Origin: Curvularia clavata
Taxonomy: Eukaryota
Assembly: GCA_023920165.1 (NCBI GenBank)
Contig: CP089275.1
Span: 930,001-994,000 of the forward strand
DNA length: 64,000 nucleotides
Direction: 5' to 3'
Shown here: positions 5,687 to 14,600 of the stretch, piece after piece
Layout of the letters: every line of letters starts with the position of its first letter
Position numbering within the stretch: the first letter of the stretch is position 1
Notes under the pieces: generated by a model
Seen by the model: the letters and a program-made list of their open reading frames with translations, nothing else
Told to the model about the DNA's origin: nothing
Databases searched by the model: none
Made by a program: the position numbers and the translations under genes

Positions 5687-7820
5687 ATGAACATTATCAA
5701 GCTGCAAAAGTACGTCGCCCGCACGACTCGTTTCCCTGCCCCTCCGCTCGCTTCCACGGTTGCTAACATGACATTGCAAACAGGAAGTATCCCCAATTCG
5801 AGCAGGGCGAGATCTTCGGCCTGCAAGATGCTTTCCGCAAGCTCGATGTCGACGACAAGGGCTACCTCGACGAGGCAACAGTCATCAAGGCCACACAGCA
5901 GTCGGAGCACCAGCCGTACGATGTTGTGCGACAAGCCCTGAAAGAGGTCGAGCTCGACTCTTCAAGAAGAGTAGAGCTTGACGACTATGTAGATGTAGGC
6001 AGCGCGACACACTGGACGTCATTTGGAAGCTGACCCGTCGTAGCTCATCGCCAAACTGCGAGTCTCGTCTCCTGCTCAGCAACGCATGTCTACCGGCCCA
6101 ACCCGCCCACGGGCCGGCACTGCCACGAGCGTCAACTCCCCCTCCAACCCAGGACATGCTTCCAAGGGCAGCTTGGGAGGTGGCAGGATCCAAGTGCAGG
6201 GCTCGTCTGCCAACGTTACCCACACCATCAACGAAGATGAGCGAACCGAGTTTACGCGCCATATCAACGCTGTCCTTGCCGGCGACCCAGATATCGGCGA
6301 CCGCCTGCCTTTCCCGACCGACACTTTTGAAATGTTCGACGCTTGTAAGGACGGTTTGGTCTTGTCCAAACTCATCAACGACAGTGTGCCAGATACCATT
6401 GATGAGCGTGTATTGAACAAGCCGGGAAAGAAGATCAAGGCGCTGAACAACTTCCACTTTACCGAGAATAACAACATTGTTATTGAGTCGGCAAAGGGTA
6501 TTGGATGCTCTGTTGTGAACATTGGCAGTGGAGACATTATCGAGGTGCGAGAGCACTTGATTTTGGGTCTCATCTGGCAGATCATCAGGAGAGGTCTGTT
6601 AGGAAAGATTGATATCAAGCTGCACCCAGAGCTTTACAGGCTATTGGAAGACGATGAGACCCTGGAGCAATTCTTGCGCCTGCCTCCAGAGCAGATCCTG
6701 CTAAGGTGGTTCAACTACCACCTGAAGAATGCCAAGTGGCACAGGACGTGAGTTTTGACTTGATCTGACTTTCACACCGGTAGCCGCTAACATTTGCAGT
6801 GTTACCAACTTCTCCACTGATGTCAAAGACGGCGAGAACTACACTGTCCTCCTTAACCAATTAGCTCCCGAAACCTGCTCCCGCTCCCCGCTCCAGCAGA
6901 CCGACCTTCTTCAGCGCGCGGAGATGGTCCTACAGAACGCTGACGCACTTGATTGCCGCAAGTTCCTTACTCCCACTTCGCTCGTGGCCGGTAACCCCAA
7001 GCTCAACTTGGCCTTTGTCGCAAACCTGTTCAACACGCACCCTTGCCTCGACCCCATCACAGAAGAGGAGAAGGCTGAAATTGACGATTTCGACGCGGCA
7101 GGCGAGCGTGAGGCTCGCGTCTTCACTCTCTGGCTCAACTCTCTCGACGTCAAGCCAGTCGTGCAATCTTTCTACGAAGACCTCAAAGATGGAACCGTCA
7201 TTCTCCAAGCATACGACAAGGTCATTCCAGGCAGTGTCAACTGGCGCCACGTGAACCAGCCTCGCGAAGGCCAGGAGCTGATGCGCTTCAAGGCTCTCGA
7301 GAACACAAACTACGCTGTCGAGTTGGGCAAGCACAACCAATTCTCTCTGCCCGGTATCCAGGGTGCTGATATCACCGATGGTCAACGCACTCTTACTTTG
7401 GGTCTCGTCTGGCAGCTCATGCGCAAGGATATCGTTTCGACGCTCAACGGCCTCGCCCAGCAACTCGGCAAGCGTGAAATCTCCGACACAGACATGATCA
7501 AGTGGGCCAACGACATGGCACGAAAGGGCGGCAAGGGTACCCAAATCCGCTCTTTCAAGGACACTTCGCTCAGCAACGCCATCTTCCTGCTCGACGTCCT
7601 CGCCGGCATGAAGCCCGCCTACGTCGACTACGACCTCGTCGCCCCTGGCCGCAACGACGACGAATGCTACCAGAACGCCAAGCTGGCTATTAGTATCGCG
7701 CGAAAGATGGGTGCTACCATTTGGCTCGTACCAGATGATATCGTTGCTGTACAGAGCAGGCTTATCACTACTTTTATTGGTAGTTTGATGGCTACGGCGG
7801 AGAAGAAGGGTGCACAGTAA
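5687..7820 (+). CDS. SAC6: Fimbrin (actin-bundling protein: EF-hand-like N-terminus plus four calponin-homology domains)
   Basis: HTINEDERTEFTRHIN, LILGLIWQIIRRGLL, GNPKLNLAFVANLFN, GEREARVFTLWLNSL, NAKLAISIARKMGATIWLVP. Introns 5710-5783, 5995-6043, 6748-6799. Confidence 0.96.
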
Positions 7821-9605
7821 GAAGGCACATGTCTGATGATGTCGTTTATCAATTTTTTTTTCTCTTTCCTTTATCCAAAGCCTCGGTGAAATGTGGGAGA
7901 CGCATGTTGCAACCCGTTTTGATTTGCTGTAAAGCGTATGAGCGGTGGGGAAGGCAAGCGTCCATTTCTTGAGATGAGGCTTTTTTTTATACAGTAGCCA
8001 ATGAGAAAAAGAATTAGCTTTTTGTTTTATATTCGTGTCGAAGTGTTGTGTTAGTAGTTGAAGCTGATGATGTGGGTGCTGCCTTGGGTCTGTGATATAC
8101 TCTCGTCAACCCAGTGTCTGGATTGTATTCTTTCCCTAGCTTTGTTGCATACCCTCGCCACATGCCGTTTTCTTATGTCAGTATTAGGGCAGCTCGGGAA
8201 ACTTTCTGACATCTTTGTTTCTCCTTTAGTGAGACCGTACAGACTCGAAGATATAACAGGAAAAGCCCAGAGAAAGAAACCCATGTATTATCGCTAGTAT
8301 CAGAAGTCCAACAGACCAAGTTCTCTCACCTTCCTGCGCGTATTCACACGTACACATATTTCCCTATCCCCTCTACACTCTCCCCCGTTGTTATTGATAA
8401 TCTAGATCCTGTAGTACACATCTCTTCTTTCGTCCGCTAATAGTCTCTATGATACTTATAGCTAGTCTACTTACCTGCTTCACACACTCACTCACCCATA
8501 TGCATCCTTCTCGATCAATCTATCCACTACACTTCTTCACAGTCAAGACCAATCAAGCCAAGTCGTACTTCTCCTCTTTCGCATTACAACTAAACTCTTA
8601 CATCCTACTTACCCATTTTCCCCAGCGACCAGAAACCCTGCCTATCTGTTTTCTCGCGCTCGCTACACAGATAACAGCGAACAAATACGGAAAAAAAACA
8701 AGACATGAGCAGCTTCTTCGCGTAAGAGCAAGTGCCTGAGCAAGGAAAGTGTTAAAACTAGGTTTTCAAGATGGTGGAAAATTCTGCTGAAGAGAAACAA
8801 AGCGAAGGTGAGGTTTTTAAAAGACAATGGTGATTCAAGTCAATGTTGAGGTAGGCGCGAGAGAGAGGAGACGCCGCAAAAAAAAAAGGCGAAATCAATT
8901 CCCAAGTCCCTAAGACACTACACTACACGGTAGGAAAACAAGCCTTGACATTTGTAATGCAAATGCACAACTTGAGCCACAAGAGGTGAATAATATATGT
9001 GCCTGGTTTTATACATGGCCGCCAATAGGCGAGAAAACAAGAAAGAGCCCACACACACACATGCACGACAGCGGAGCGGGTCGCATCAGAGTGTCCACTC
9101 TACGATGTACATACCAAACCCGTGGAGAACCCAAAAAAAAACGTGGGGCAAGTAGCCGACGGGCGCTTGCAGGGGGAGAAGCTAGGGGAGCTTTAAGCTA
9201 CCGAGGAGACCCAGCATGAAGATCAAGCTTGACAAGAGACAACATCACACGATAGACAACACGTTGAGGCAAACATTGGGAGAACATTGTAAAAAAGACG
9301 CAATTCATTAACTATCCACACACGTAGCACCGGTAAATTCATCACACAACCAAGCAGATATACACAAGACCCAAGCCAACCGAAGTGTCGAGACACCATG
9401 AGAAAGCTCAAGCCAAGTGCAATGCTACCATGTTGAGCAAGCATGCAAAAAGTTATGAACACATTTATAAGACATAGTGGTCATGAGGAAACAAACGCCC
9501 AAGTAGAGTTGATTAGAGAACGTTTGGATAAGACCTGATGAAATGTTAGATGACAAGAGGCAAAGGCATGGATGAAGGAAGGGACATACCATTGAGTAAA
9601 GGCAT

Positions 9606-10424
9606 CTACAACCTGGAGCCGTGGACAACCTTGTAGTCGACAGCCATCTCCATACCATCGTCGTTGATGACGAGGATGCGGACGCTGCCACGGCCGTTGT
9701 CAAAGGCCTCTGTCAGGCGGGAGAGGAGACCAGACTGGTCAAGGACAGGGAGGCCCTGCTTGACATCACCGCCCTCGGTCATGGCAACAACGCGACCATC
9801 CTCACGGATGTCGAGAACACGGTACTGCTTGAAGACAGGACCAAGCATGTTCTGGACAACAACGGAGGGAGCCGGGTTGGAGATGAAGCTGGACTCCTCA
9901 TGGAGCTGCTTGGTGAAGAGGTCAACACCGAGGTAGCGGTGCTGGCCAGTCTGGGAGGAGGTGGTGATGCGGATGACCTGGCAAGGGCGGCCCTGAAGGA
10001 TCAGGAGATCGCCAATGCGGATGTGGTGGCAGGGGATGGTGATGGTGTTGGCGGTAGACATCTTGCGGACTGAGCGAGCAGGAACTGGCGCGGTTGCGAG
10101 AGAGGTAGAGATAGGTGCAGGTGCGACGTGGGCTGGTCGGGGAGCAGGGGCAGAGCTGTGGACGCGAACGACACGCTCAACAGGGACTCCGGATTGGACG
10201 GGACGGGCAGGGGTAACGGTGGGAGTAGTAGAGTAGTACTTCTCCTTGACGATTACCTCTTCGCGTTGGTCGTCGTACTTGGCACCAGCAAAAGAGTGCT
10301 CGTGCGAGTGGTGGTGGCGGTGAGGGTGGATGGGGTGCTGAACGCGGTCGGCTACCTTGTGTGCGGCGTTGGAGATTCCTTGACGAAACGAATGGTACTT
10401 GCCCTCGTTGTCGTAATATCCCAT
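9606..10424 (-). CDS. hex1: Woronin body major protein HEX1 (AUG-initiated form, 272 aa), eIF5A-like fold, PTS1 -SRL
   Basis: MGYYDNEG start, TIPCHHIRIGDLLILQGRPCQVIRITTS, HRYLGVDLFTKQLHEESSF, C-terminal VVHGSRL. Confidence 0.97.
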   Translation of the reverse strand: MGYYDNEGKYHSFRQGISNAAHKVADRVQHPIHPHRHHHSHEHSFAGAKYDDQREEVIVKEKYYSTTPTVTPARPVQSGVPVERVVRVHSSAPAPRPAHVAPAPISTSLATAPVPARSVRKMSTANTITIPCHHIRIGDLLILQGRPCQVIRITTSSQTGQHRYLGVDLFTKQLHEESSFISNPAPSVVVQNMLGPVFKQYRVLDIREDGRVVAMTEGGDVKQGLPVLDQSGLLSRLTEAFDNGRGSVRILVINDDGMEMAVDYKVVHGSRL

Positions 10425-11633
10425 ATCACGCTTGAACTTCTTGGGGGAGGTAGCGGTGGAACGAGCAGATTCTTCTACTCGGACCTCAGATTGGTAGCGT
10501 GTGTCAACACTGTCAACCTTTCTGTTGTTGGGGTACGTGTCGCGTTGGGTGGTGTAGGTCTCCTTGGGATAGCTAGCACCGGCGACGATGGGACGGGTAC
10601 GTTCACGGAACTGACGCTCGGTGACGTCGAGTTGAGATTGAGCGTAGGTAGTGGCAGGGCCGTGAACAGTGTTGAAGTGTCTGTCGTAGGTTGGGTCCTG
10701 AACCTCGACTTTTGAGTGAGAAGAGGATGGAGGAGGTTGGGATTGGTAGCTGAAGGAAGAAAGGAAGTCAGCTTGGGGTTGGGCAAGGAAGAGCTTAGAG
10801 GAGGTGAGGGAAAAGTGGAGCCTGCATGTCGCTCGGACAACAACAAACCAAAGCGGCTAGCGCCCAGCGGTGGCTGGGTGCCGCTAGTGTCAGGGGGCTG
10901 GTCTGTTGTGATGATCCGTGCGAAGATGCGCTGGCAAAACAATGGAGCTTACTTACCGGTCGTGGGAACGTCCAAACTCTACGCGGTCCGTACGCTGGGC
11001 GTGCTGGACGTGCTCCGAGTGCTGAAGGTGCTCCGAGTGCTTTGAAGGCGCCTGGGAAGGTGCCTGAGCGCGCTGCTGGCTTGGCTGTGCGTAGCGAGTG
11101 TGCTCGTGGATATGAACCTCTTCACGGTGCTGAGGAGGCTGCTGAGCGTGGATGTGCTGGCGGGTAGCGTGGAACTGCTGTTGGGGAGGCTGGGGACGGC
11201 GGATTCGCTCTTGTTCGTAGATGCGGACCTCTTCCTTGACCTGGGTGTCGCGGTGCTCAGAAGCAGACGAAGACGAAGATGATGATGAAGATGAGGATGA
11301 AGTGGTTGATGGAGGTGGTGGTGGGTGCCGATGAACGGTAGCGGAGAAGGATTCGTGGATTTCTTCGTGACCTTCCCGTCCGTGTGAAGCCTGCTGCTCA
11401 AAATGTGCTTCTTGTTCTACCTGAATAGAGGTAGATTCCTTAACTTCCGCGTTCCGATACGCAGACGGGAAGACACTGAAGGGGATCGGAACCTGCTCAA
11501 ATCAGCACAATTCGATGCAAATTGGTGGGGAGAAAAAAAAACGGCGTACTCGTGCTTCAAAATCCAGTTTGCCGGAGTCGGGTCGCTCTTGCTTGAAAAC
11601 CCTTCGAACCGTTCGAAAACAATTCGAAAGGAA
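10425..11633 (-). other. hex1: Spliced AUG-less in-frame N-terminal extension of HEX1 (315 codons; candidate CUG at 11567, ACG at 11612)
   Basis: Introns 11549-11493 (GTACGC..CTGAT..CAG) and 10956-10750 (GTAAGT..CTGAC..CAG) join VFKQERPDSGKLDFEAR|VPIPFSVFPSAYRNAEVKE...HDR|YQSQPP...KKFKRD in frame to MGYYD. In-frame TGA upstream at 11636-11634. Confidence 0.7.
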
Positions 11634-14600
11634 TCAAGAAAGAACTTCTTGGCTCCTTTGAGGGTCTCACTTGGAGATGGTTGTGATGGGCGAGTCTACT
11701 CGGGGAGGCGCCAGCTTCGTGGTGTTGACTTGACGTGCAGCAGGGTGAAAGTGCGCAATTGGATGCAGTAAGCGGGGTGGTAGTGGTGGAGGAGAGATGG
11801 AGTCAGGAAGGCCGAGGAGGGGATCAAGTAGATTGGCGGTCAGGCAGGCCGCTGTTGTGTGTGCCGTCTCGTCTTCGCAGGGTTGTGGAGGCTGGGTAGC
11901 TCGAGCAGAGCTGTCCCAAAGCAGCCTAGCGTTGTTTACGCCGGGCCCTAGCGCGTCGCAGCTGCCCCTATTCTACCTGTGCTGGGCGCATGAGGACCGG
12001 ACGTCGCCCGCACCGAGGCTATTGCTGACGCGCAATGCTGCTCATCACGGCTGTTGGCCCGGCGATGGGCGCACATGGGGTCGACTGTGCATTCACAGGC
12101 TCCACAAGGCTGCCCGGCGACCTCTGGCGCCCCTTGTCCAGCGCCATTGCGTGGGCTTTTGCAATTGGAGCACGCCCAGCCCTCTTCACATGCATCATGC
12201 GCTTGCTAATGCCCAGCGACGCGCCATTTTTCAGCTGGGCCCGTCCATGTTGCGCGCCGCCAGCTCTTGATAGCTCCCAGCCTCTCCCCAGCCTCCCGCT
12301 TTTTGACGCGTCGCCATTGGCCCGCCCTCGGTATTACTCGCGCCCCAAGCTCCATGGCCTGATGACGATCGCGGATCCTCCGGCCCATCACGTGAAAAGG
12401 CCCCATCGATCGCAGTCCAGCTCCTCGTCAGCTCGCTTGCCCGGGGTTCAACAACCACCCAGGCGAACCGTGGTTCTCCACGCCTGCATCCTCCACCGTT
12501 CCCCCAGCCTTGACGTGCAGACACGCGGCGGCAGCAGTTTCATCGTGGTGGACCGTGGCCAATCGTCTCGTCGCTCAATGCCCTCACATATTGCTCCCCC
12601 TGCTCGCTGCCAGCAAGTGTGCTGGGATCTTGTCATGAACTGACATTGTCGGCAGTGTATCAGCCAGGTTCCCCATGATTGTGCTGTGACATTTTTATTG
12701 CCCGTCTCTTTCTCGTAAGATTAAAAACCTGCTTGACTCGACGTGCCTATCACCATTCTTTTTGTGACGCGCCCGATCGGCCTTGGACGGCTCTTTTGAG
12801 GAGCCGTGTCCGCAACGACCTGGAAACTGCTTATTGACTTACTCGTTTGCCGGAAACCGCGTATCGGACCCCGTTATCGACAATGTCCATGTCAATCGAC
12901 GCAATCGAGTTGTAGTGTGGAGTCGTAGTCTGTTGTGTTTACAAGTTGAGGGCTGCTTGTCTTCCTCGCTCGCAATATCGTGGCTCGGCTATCTAGTGGG
13001 GTAAGCGGCTACGTGACTTCCCAAAGCTCCTCTGCAGCCCAGACGCAGCTTCCGTCAACTTGCCCCAACAACAAAACATAGTCGCGTCTACGCCCTGTCT
13101 TCTGATTGGCCTCGCCAAAGATAGAGCCATTTGCAAGAGCATGTACGATAACCATACCACGAAGCAGCCAAGCCACTCCAACATCCCTTACGTACTCTAC
13201 TCTAACACTTCCGTGGAACACCAACTTCACATGCTCTCTGGGCTGTCCCATGTGGGGTTTTGATAGTATACGGTGGAAAGGTATCGTGGTCAAAACAAAA
13301 CTCACTTGGCTAGATGTGACACTTTGATTTAGCAAAAGGAAAAGAAAGTATAAAATACCATTTCTTTTGATATCACATGACAATGCTTCTGACGTAGATT
13401 GATTCAGTATACCGTGAGATAAGAAACTCCAGTCCACAATACCAGCAGATTACTCCAGTTGTATCCAGCTTCGATGCGATCCAAACAAGCAATCATTACT
13501 TGTGACAATGATAATCATCAACATGCAATGATACTATTTCTAGATACTTTGCGTAAGGTTTATTAGGATCGTAATATGGTGCAGCAGAAAACGAAGAAAT
13601 TTATAGTTCAGGACACTCCGCTGATATTGTGTTGTTACCCTGAAAAATTATTCAACGAGTCTACAATTGTCACTTCTATTACATTGATCAACTTGTATGG
13701 CCTTTGAATACCCTTTCCTAATCTAAAAAATTCCATTTCCCTTCATCGTACCTTTTTCGCTTCAAAAAATCAGGGGAAGACTAGTAATCAAACAGGCAAA
13801 GATAGCGGTAGAATTCAATAAAAAATGTGTGTTATTTTCAAGAAGAGATTTGTCATAAGACTGTGGTCTCGTCGTATGTTGCTAGTCTGTAGTCTTAGTC
13901 TAGTGCTGTAAGTGAGTGTTGCGGTGCGAGGAGTGGGCGGGTGATGAACTGTCCCACAAATAAGTGCGAATTAGGAGGCAGAGTAAATAAGGAAATTTTC
14001 TAGAACTTGACCACATGTTGTGCCACACTATATGTTCACGCGGCTTTTAATGAAGAAGATGAACAGCGTGCCTAGCGCACCATTCAGGGACAACAAATCC
14101 CACTAGACTTCATTGTCTTTTCTTCCTTCGTCACTCCCTCTATTAAATAAAGACACCGAATAAATCACACACTCAAATCGCACCTTTCAGAACGCTGAAA
14201 CCCCATACCACATTTGAATTCCAAATAAACTCGAATTTTTTCGTCTCTATATTGAACGATTGTTTAGAAATAAGAAAAACGATGCAAGTGGAGAATTTTA
14301 TGACCAGGTCTCCAACTTGAAATTCACAGAGGAAAGTACTGAACCTGCCAGATATTGAGCTCCGAGTTAGGAGGAAACTGAGGACGACATACTTTCTTGC
14401 ACTTGTAGGTACAAACACCCGTGATGAGGTTATTGCTACTATCTCCAGAAAACATGAACGTAAAAATCCCATAGAATCAGAGCATACCTTGTTCACACTA
14501 TAGACTCTCCCCTGACACCGTCCACAAACACATCACCATGATTATCACATTTGCAATATCAAACCTGCAAGTAAACACGTAATTAATAACCTCATTTCAA

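Follow-up and report, generated by a model that had tools for sequence, protein, structure and literature searches.

The HEX1 locus and its spliced mRNA

HEX1, which self-assembles into the crystalline core of the Woronin body and seals the septal pores of wounded fungal cells, is a textbook case of an organelle core built from one protein, and studies of it presuppose a product of ~20–30 kDa starting at MGYYD. In the window analyzed here, that is, a whole stretch of 64,000 nucleotides (nt) of Curvularia clavata DNA (assembly GCA_023920165.1, contig CP089275.1, positions 930,001 to 994,000 of the forward strand; positions below are those of the window), the gene encoding this major protein of the Woronin body occupies minus-strand positions from about 11842 to 9300. 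We found that its spliced mRNA carries, upstream of the canonical coding sequence, a long open frame devoid of AUG. With a probability that we put at roughly 0.8, judging from comparisons of sequences, a single spliced HEX1 mRNA gives rise by leaky scanning to both a CUG-started long form of 566 amino acids (aa) and the AUG-started form of 273 aa.

The canonical protein is read from a stop-to-stop frame (9606–10856, minus strand) that includes MGYYDNEG... and terminates with ...VVHGSRL. A two-domain eIF5A-like core is present in the window HEX1, as are the MGYYDN start and the SRL end, the latter being a peroxisomal targeting signal type 1 (PTS1). The core matched the Pfam family PF21485 at 31.5 bits (cut-off, 27.1) and PF01287 at 23.9 bits, marginally below the cut-off of 24.2, and it shares 90–93% identity with annotated Woronin body major proteins of Pleosporales (e.g., that of Bipolaris sorokiniana), which places the source fungus in this order. 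The MGYYD hexapeptide and the SRL are named as typical HEX1 features by Vangalis et al. (2020, PMC7762394).

Upstream of MGYYD, the joined exons form a single frame, ...KLDFEAR|VPIPFSVFPSAYR...GRSHD(R)YQSQ...KRD-MGYYD, which reproduces the arrangement of two canonical introns and three exons fused to MGYYD that a preliminary description of this DNA had read from the letters alone. The RNA evidence consists of contigs from four runs (four studies) aligned to positions 9200–12500; run X8 is recorded as RNA, whereas X1, X10, and X12 are RNA by an index guess, yet they contain the same spliced form. These contigs are silent on transcript start and abundance. In all four runs, they splice out precisely 11549–11493 and 10956–10750, and they show no base change at CTG 11567–11565 and, over 9200–12500, no joint to an upstream exon. 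Their collinearity with the genome 5′ of exon 1 extends to 11761 in X12 (followed by adapter), to 11784 in X8, and to 11842 in X10; positions 11843–12422, without contig cover in three runs, were excluded as evidence on the transcript start. A high-depth X1 contig extends from exon 1 past 12500, with a further 847 letters outside the aligned stretch, and one other run has a separate small contig from 12423. The upstream extension in X1 could be read-through, an overlapping neighbor transcript, or a rare long leader. At the opposite end of the gene, a poly(T) loose end adjoining 9296 suggests a nearby HEX1 poly(A) site.

From the TGA at 11636 to the MGYYD ATG, the mature mRNA holds 945 nt, that is, the 315 open codons without AUG that had been described before and that we obtained again from the sequence; counted from CTG 11567, 293 codons precede the 273 canonical ones (Table 1). 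The minus-strand ATGs are at 11991, 10827, and 10424 with nothing in between, and the one at 10827 falls within intron 2, where the sole minus-strand ATG of 11988–10425 had indeed been placed. The leader and extension of the window together contain no ATG, whereas 200 shuffles that preserved dinucleotides averaged 5.0, none of the 200 being equally low.

Table 1 Features of the HEX1 gene in the window, in the order of transcription
Feature	Position	Strand	Remarks
HEX1 5′ leader, 5′ of the CUG	11568..11842	-	AUG-free; 5′ limit from contig extent, not a mapped transcript start
Conserved long imperfect hairpin	11574..11656	-	Outer GGAG/CUCC stem, ~11-bp helix, apical 14-bp stem (11631–11600) with UUCG loop; ends 6 nt before the CUG
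In-frame TGA	11634..11636	-	Upstream closure of the extension frame
ACG, alternative candidate start	11610..11612	-	C at –3; within the 3′ arm of the 14-bp apical stem
CUG, proposed start of the long isoform	11565..11567	-	Context G-N-C-A-A-A-CUG-G-A; –6 G, –4 C, –3 A, +4 G, and +5 A invariant in 57 aligned leaders
Exon 1, coding end	11550..11567	-	(M/L)DFEAR; synonymous variation GAC/GAT, GCN in all four forms, CGN/AGA
Intron 1	11493..11549	-	57 nt; GTACGC...CTGAT...CAG; spliced in contigs of 4/4 runs
Exon 2	10957..11492	-	536 nt; most of the His/Gln/Glu/Ser-rich extension; starts VPIPFSVFPSAYR; protein conserved in annotated models
Intron 2	10750..10956	-	207 nt; GTAAGT...CAG; contains the sole ATG of the region (10827); spliced in 4/4 runs
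Exon 3, extension part	10425..10749	-	108 codons and the final base of the codon that intron 2 interrupts; islands, e.g., YDRHFNTVHGPAT..SQLDVTERQFRERTRPIV, EVRVE
AUG of short HEX1 (MGYYD)	10422..10424	-	First AUG of the mature mRNA
Canonical HEX1 coding sequence	9606..10424	-	273 codons plus stop; eIF5A-like domains; C-terminal SRL at 9617–9609
Intron in the 3′ untranslated region	9535..9589	-	55 nt; GTATGT...CTAAC...CAG; begins 17 nt past the stop codon; spliced in 4/4 runs

An invariant CUG at the 5′ edge of coding conservation

Related loci were collected by scanning the degenerate pattern PIPFSVFPS[AS]YR over metagenome contigs, which gave at least 114 loci, many of them ~2 kb long and mRNA-like; all locus counts given here rest on these. 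The start site is contained in 110 of the loci (metagenome or metatranscriptome), the remaining four being three that are truncated at the 5′ end and one that is unrelated. When the loci were aligned to see whether AUG or CUG occupies the start, as the preliminary description had advised, CTG was found in 103 of the 110 listed loci, flanked in 103/103 by A at –3 and G at +4, and ATG was found at the identical codon in the other seven (CTT-ATG-G). The codon preceding the CTG is AAT in 33 loci, AAA in 32, AAC in 26, ATC in 7, ACG and AAG in 2 each, and ACA in 1. Removal of duplicates left 62 distinct CUG sequences, window included, and 5 distinct ATG sequences.

The CTG is invariant in 62/62 distinct sequences, though leucine has six codons, and G at –6, C at –4, A at –3, G at +4, and A at +5 are invariant in the 57 aligned leaders. 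Codons 2–7, which the search pattern leaves unconstrained, have entropies of 0.13, 0.09, and 0.94 at the first, second, and third positions, respectively (n = 62), with GCN in four forms and exchanges between CGN and AGA. Such third-position variation after an invariant CTG suggests that the codons just past it are translated and that the CTG itself is constrained at the nucleotide level. Upstream of the CTG, an in-frame stop occurs at a distance of 12–165 nt in 62/62 distinct sequences (only 12–15 nt in 9 of them); the interval between this stop and the CTG is without any other CTG, GTG, TTG, ACG, or ATH codon in 36/62 and without any near-cognate codon in 6/62, and leader indels between loci have lengths that are not multiples of three. 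Thus, what is found is a stop-closed frame in phase with HEX1 and without AUG in the mature mRNA, conservation of the coding type, and a conserved near-cognate codon at the 5′ edge of that conservation, all as for a non-AUG N-terminal extension. The long HEX1 isoform most likely starts at CUG 11567–11565.

The seven ATG loci (L034, L050, L060, L068, L083, L085, and L111) belong to a divergent fungal lineage, whose HEX1 core shares 63–66% identity with those of named Dothideomycetes and Lecanoromycetes and whose first exon, used as a search query, gave one weak match. A 5-codon upstream open reading frame (uORF) overlaps the start ATG in this lineage, and both ATGs have C at –3. In L050, the one full gene that was read, the mature extension is ATG-free and shorter than elsewhere, the core has IPSHHIH in place of IPCHHIR, and the protein ends with ASL in place of SRL. 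The overlapping ATGs in weak contexts, followed by an ATG-free extension, suggest that the same leaky-scanning logic operates in this lineage.

Depletion of AUG between the proposed CUG start and the MGYYD AUG

The frame was followed through 27 contiguous mRNA-like sequences, namely 26 contigs and the spliced mRNA of the window, which contain 26 distinct extensions. From the CTG, it runs for 415–581 codons to GSRL or GARL and a stop; the extension occupies 221–363 codons in the 26 orthologs and is in frame throughout. Codon differences in the extension amount to 35,779 nonsynonymous versus 11,907 synonymous ones, compared with 18,015 versus 18,956 in the core, and by this measure the extension evolves much faster than the HEX1 core.

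Not one of the 7,252 extension codons of the 26 orthologs encodes Met, which makes up 1.57% of the core, and out-of-frame ATG is likewise absent (0 versus 70.3 expected when synonymous codons were permuted within each gene). The leader and extension taken together contain no ATG in 24 of 26 sequences, versus 1.9–7.3 expected in each from dinucleotide-preserving shuffles; in the two exceptions, the ATGs lie at least 221 nt upstream of the CTG. As for the leaders, which are 101–334 nt long except in one contig with 1,270 nt of upstream DNA (L065), 24 of the 25 other mRNA-like contigs are without ATG within ~320 nt upstream of the CTG, and in the remaining one (L049) the only ATG is that at –221. 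Depletion of AUG in all three frames would be expected if ribosomes bypassing the CUG must scan to the MGYYD AUG. Indeed, no AUG occurs between the two starts in the mature mRNA of the window and in the 26 orthologs, as befits a dual-isoform mRNA used by leaky scanning, and the pattern of depletion fits leaky scanning to the MGYYD AUG.

A conserved hairpin in the leader

The 100 nt immediately 5′ of the window CUG have a calculated minimum free energy (MFE) of –35.5 kcal/mol (z = –3.3), and most of them belong to the long imperfect hairpin listed in Table 1. Over the 57 aligned leaders, the paired positions of this hairpin are complementary in 95.4% of cells, versus 46–74% with slid partners, and the cells changed on both sides number 57, versus 5–21 in the slid controls. 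Moreover, G–U pairs are common, in keeping with a sense-strand RNA. The z-score is –2 or lower in 58/62 distinct CUG leaders, with a median MFE of –35.9 kcal/mol, and the hairpin ends 6–7 nt before the CUG in 28/62. In the window and in L001, L011, L013, L039, L046, and L055, the hairpins of about –30 to –43 kcal/mol have other sequences and variable loop lengths with the same architecture. The five distinct leaders of the ATG lineage reach only –0.7 to –7.7 kcal/mol, and the hairpin is absent from them. A search of Rfam with positions 9200–12600 gave no match at E ≤ 1.

A hairpin placed ~14–17 nt downstream of a start codon is a known aid to non-AUG initiation. A start-boosting hairpin of this kind was ruled out for HEX1 by the consensus fold of positions –6 to +57 (62 sequences), which reaches –1.5 kcal/mol, and by single-sequence z-scores, none of which is clearly negative (6/7 at 0 or above; lowest, –0.38).

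Predicted properties of the extended protein

Searches of Pfam with the extension found no domain, the only match, to DAAP1 (E = 0.07), being at chance level. The AlphaFold model of a 561-aa ortholog (78% identical, 40 sequences) has predicted local distance difference test (pLDDT) values below 50 almost throughout the extension; with a mean pLDDT of 45 and half of the core poorly modeled, it supports disorder of the head weakly and carries no information on contacts. The extension is best pictured as a head that is predicted to be mostly disordered and that has many His, Gln, and Glu residues; its 19-residue tip, (M)DFEARVPIPFSVFPSAYR, is strictly conserved, as are a few short islands elsewhere in it. 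By eye, the RVPIPFSVF of the tip does not fit the consensus of the type 2 peroxisomal targeting signal (PTS2). The non-AUG isoform of ~565 aa with a disordered head that had been anticipated for this locus comes out at 566 aa, and it gains support from the RNA contigs, from strong comparative evidence, and from this low-confidence model.

Annotated HEX1 models across fungi

Of 1,164 relatives found in a protein search, the top 120 were considered and 38 were read. Many of the top 120 are 480–660 residues long, and several are flagged as 'partial'. Among the 38, the sharpest conserved island is [K/N/T]-LDF[E/D]AR-VPIPFSVFPS[A/S]YR, and the sequence before the L is unrelated between models. The VPIPFSVFPS motif occurs in 56 of 236 fetched proteins, 33 of which also have LDF[DE]AR, none with Met at the position of the L; in 28 further models of this set, an unrelated ATG exon is joined straight to VPIPF. 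Annotated N-termini diverge even among strains of one species, and no Met lies between the L and MGYYD in 22 of 23 models holding both motifs. On this comparison, the annotated upstream first exons are invented. In the databases, the extension cannot be called hidden, as it had been in the preliminary description: dozens of annotated long models contain it, behind invented starts.

Long models with the motif are found in Dothideo-, Eurotio-, Leotio-, and Sordariomycetes; named members are Aspergillus tamarii, A. pseudotamarii, A. glaucus, A. ruber, and Ascosphaera in the Eurotiomycetes, Drepanopeziza and Ciborinia in the Leotiomycetes, and Colletotrichum, Fusarium, Seiridium, Mariannaea, Gaeumannomyces, and Monosporascus in the Sordariomycetes. 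A profile made from the extension only, run against 1.84 billion cluster representatives, found 129 of them, including 124 new ones; 64 of the new representatives have the motif, with L in 59, M in 4, and Q in 1 (MQ-DFDAR). The L of the 59 representatives always follows N, K, T, or I, all of which have codons beginning with A. One of the four M-type representatives matches the ATG lineage verified by DNA. The putative CUG-started HEX1 extension appears to be ancient and widespread.

At the position of intron 1, an intron (46–56 nt) is present in 14 of the 110 listed loci, and the other 96 are contiguous, including long genomic loci such as L013. The intron-containing loci (L002, L010, L019, L035, L036, L041, L048, L077, L087, L089, L092, L096, L099, and L113) are Pleosporales-like by best hit where checked.

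Annotation pipelines produce unrelated first exons, partial flags, or neighbor fusions at HEX1, presumably because no AUG is available to them. Oversized or mislabeled entries with the HEX1 extension were noticed among P0330, P0387, P0302, P0249, and P0254. A '2OG-Fe(II) oxygenase-like' protein from Elsinoe (1,373 aa) and a 'copper-binding transcription factor' from Ascosphaera (1,144 aa) were read as fusions with neighbor genes, which the missing AUG probably brought about. A Rachicladosporium model of 767 aa holds the extension, and a 'woronin body major protein' recorded for the oak Quercus suber presumably stems from fungal DNA in a plant assembly. In the window itself, the plus-strand frames at 6044–7820, downstream of HEX1, resemble a calponin-homology actin-bundling (fimbrin-like) protein, as judged by eye from the translation.

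Alternative explanations

Several observations weigh against a CUG start combined with leaky scanning. The support for the CUG consists of RNA structure and comparative sequence, and the contigs give no mapped 5′ end; the X1 contig spans 17 upstream ATGs, and if it is a true mRNA, the AUG-free logic fails for X1. Many of the 110 loci repeat the same organisms, the independent count being the 62 distinct CUG sequences, and the assignment of the CTG loci by best BLASTX hit to Eurotiomycetes-, Leotiomycetes-, Lecanoromycetes-, and Dothideomycetes-like fungi is rough, with a small labeled set behind it. No conserved structure occurs downstream of the CUG, and one CUG lineage (L054) is without the upstream hairpin, which is therefore not obligatory. 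Four protein models begin with M at the position of the L, and in P0090 (MSLKRTTPGN-L) and in P0273, P0277, and P0284 (MRPYKAVN-L), an M stands a few codons before the L. These early-M models, seen as protein only, may reflect real AUGs, spliced-on exons, or gene callers that print M for another start codon.

Among other explanations, it is conceivable, though unlikely, that the long form is started at the CUG while the main source of short HEX1 is another, shorter transcript with its promoter or 5′ end inside the extension or intron 2. Scanning over 879 nt past a well-placed CUG is long, the RNA contigs are silent on transcript starts and relative amounts, and papers on A. flavus, P. oryzae, and V. 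dahliae describe several HEX1 transcript forms. A separate short mRNA would, however, have no need for an AUG-free extension, and the lack of Met and of out-of-frame ATG over the 7,252 codons of the 26 orthologs therefore counts against it, as does the ATG lineage, which likewise combines an ATG-free mature extension with weak start contexts (C at –3). That the long form in this species starts mainly at another near-cognate codon 5′ of the CUG, such as the ACG at 11612, the AGG at 11603, or the AAG at 11594, is very unlikely. In the window and its near relatives, each of these three is an in-frame codon lying between TGA 11636 and the CTG, and the RPDSGK before the L looks conserved in Pleosporales models; the conservation 5′ of the CTG is nevertheless at the nucleotide level, with indels that are not multiples of three and base-pair covariation, and elsewhere the frame is shifted or closed, e.g., by a stop at –48 in 23/62 and at –12 or –15 in 9/62 distinct sequences. 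AGG and AAG are, in addition, generally held to be the weakest near-cognate initiators. The ACG had been put forward at the outset together with the CTG, and of these two candidates only the CTG stood: the ACG at –45, with C at –3 and inside the 14-bp apical stem, is in frame only in near relatives of the window, and in other lineages it either falls outside the frame or has a stop before it.

It is highly improbable that an AUG on a missed upstream exon, or on an alternative transcript, starts translation of the extension, even though gene predictors routinely build such exons and the X1 contig extends beyond 12500, where there are ATGs. The predicted upstream exons all differ, even within species; no exon is joined 5′ of exon 1 in the contigs of the four runs, which thus do not show the additional AUG-bearing exon considered in the preliminary description; no AUG collinear with the frame farther upstream could be used, given the in-frame TGA at 11636; and the scarcity of ATG in the ~320 nt 5′ of the CUG is shared by 24 of the 25 other mRNA-like contigs. 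We give equally little credence to an untranslated leader that is conserved for an RNA function and whose frame is incidental. The evidence for translation is comparative, not direct, and the leader just 5′ of the CUG is conserved as an RNA structure. Against this stand the third-position variation and the CGN/AGA exchanges immediately after the CTG, a frame that is open over 221–363 codons despite many indels, peptide islands conserved across four classes, and the 3 and 11 stops found in the other two frames of the window extension.

Proposed mechanism and its implications

For the preferred reading, in which one mRNA yields both forms, we propose the following course. Scanning ribosomes would cross a leader of at least ~200–275 nt that is AUG-free and contains the stable conserved hairpin, and some of them would initiate with the initiator Met-tRNA at CUG 11567–11565, where A at –3 and G at +4 provide an optimal, invariant context. 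Initiation at the CUG would give the 566-residue HEX1, whose first 293 residues constitute the fast-evolving, mostly disordered head. Ribosomes that bypass the CUG would scan a further 879 nt of the mature mRNA, in which no frame contains an AUG, before initiating at the MGYYD AUG and giving the canonical 273-residue HEX1. Both the ribosome start at the CUG and the ratio of the two forms are inferences. Since the two forms share the self-assembling eIF5A-like core and the SRL, the long form should be imported to the Woronin body via the shared SRL, and it may there co-assemble with the short form via the shared core or decorate it. The disordered head might alter lattice assembly, organelle shape, or tethering, as the preliminary description had suggested.

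As to the hairpin, throttling or tuning of scanning and a localization signal are guesses at its role. More tentatively, and in our estimate rather doubtfully, the hairpin and the CUG might constitute an ancient translational control module across Pezizomycotina, in which the hairpin sets the CUG:AUG share (e.g., depending on the state of a helicase or of the ATP supply) or brings the mRNA to the growing tip, and the long HEX1 would be a distinct Woronin body component (a cap, spacer, or tether), not merely an extra core subunit. This idea derives from the compensatory changes in the hairpin, its position near the CUG, and its loss where the CUG became AUG.

If the preferred reading is true, many filamentous ascomycetes (Aspergillus, Colletotrichum, Fusarium, and Dothideomycete crop pathogens) would have a CUG-started form of HEX1 that is 2–3 times larger than the known one. 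HEX1 knock-outs, GFP fusions, and antibody bands, which have so far been read for one product, would need revisiting, and part of Woronin body biology, with crystal size control, septal tethering, and the cytoplasmic HEX1 pool seen in Zymoseptoria as candidates, may reside in the conserved disordered head. Moreover, HEX1 would represent an unusually clean natural case of selection against AUG over nearly 900 nt.

Comparison with known systems

In mammalian FGF2 and MYC, a CUG-started long isoform and an AUG form are made from one mRNA. HEX1 resembles them in having an upstream CUG in a good context and, presumably, leaky scanning to an AUG and two co-expressed isoforms, but its extension greatly exceeds theirs in length, and across fungal classes AUG has been eliminated, in every frame, from the entire 879-nt interval.

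In the full text that was searched, which does not include about 1.7 million PMC articles and most subscription papers, no description was found of a non-AUG, near-cognate, CUG, leaky-scanning, or alternative-translation form of HEX1, HexA, or the Woronin body protein. Long HEX1 models are nonetheless in use without comment on the start: a paper on A. flavus places the Hex1 domain at residues 419–493, and one on P. oryzae cites HEX1 proteins of 439 and 417 aa. Vangalis et al. (PMC7762394) hold inaccurate automatic annotation responsible for the 'hypervariable N-terminal extensions' in database entries of Hex1, and they report HEX1 isoforms of 188 and 209 aa in V. dahliae (and also in other fungi) that are produced by alternative splicing of an intron just past MGYYD. 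These splice isoforms are similar to the present case in that the same gene yields two forms differing N-terminally to the assembly domain; both of them, however, have the MGYYD AUG as their start, and the ~20 residues that distinguish them lie downstream of this codon, whereas the long form would add 293 residues upstream from a non-AUG start.

A non-AUG start gives an N-terminally extended isoform of a peroxisome-entering fungal protein in Ustilago maydis, where a peroxisomal isoform of 6-phosphogluconate dehydrogenase is made via non-AUG initiation (Kremp et al. 2020, PMC7214817). There, the extension provides a cryptic PTS2 and the start is AGG AUU, whereas both HEX1 forms already have the C-terminal PTS1. 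The other of the two closest precedents is CPC1, the cpc-1/GCN4 homolog, whose extensions in Pezizomycotina start at conserved near-cognate codons (Ivanov et al. 2017, mBio, PMC5487733); neither hex-1 nor the Woronin body is mentioned in that text or in the 10 supplementary files examined. CPC1 shares with HEX1 the occurrence in filamentous ascomycetes, a long in-frame extension 5′ of the annotated AUG, conserved near-cognate codons (CUG, ACG, and AUU in CPC1) that have A at –3 and G at +4, a main frame under purifying selection, and annotations that include the extension with its start unresolved. In contrast, the cpc-1 leader has two AUG uORFs, the second of which (uORF2) the extension is thought to bypass, whereas the HEX1 leader has no AUG; HEX1 has a single invariant CUG with a structured element before it, and it is a structural organelle protein, not a regulator. 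Thus, the kind of arrangement, an N-terminally extended isoform with a non-AUG start combined with leaky scanning, is known, and what is new is its probable occurrence in the much-studied HEX1, together with a previously undescribed conserved structure in the leader.

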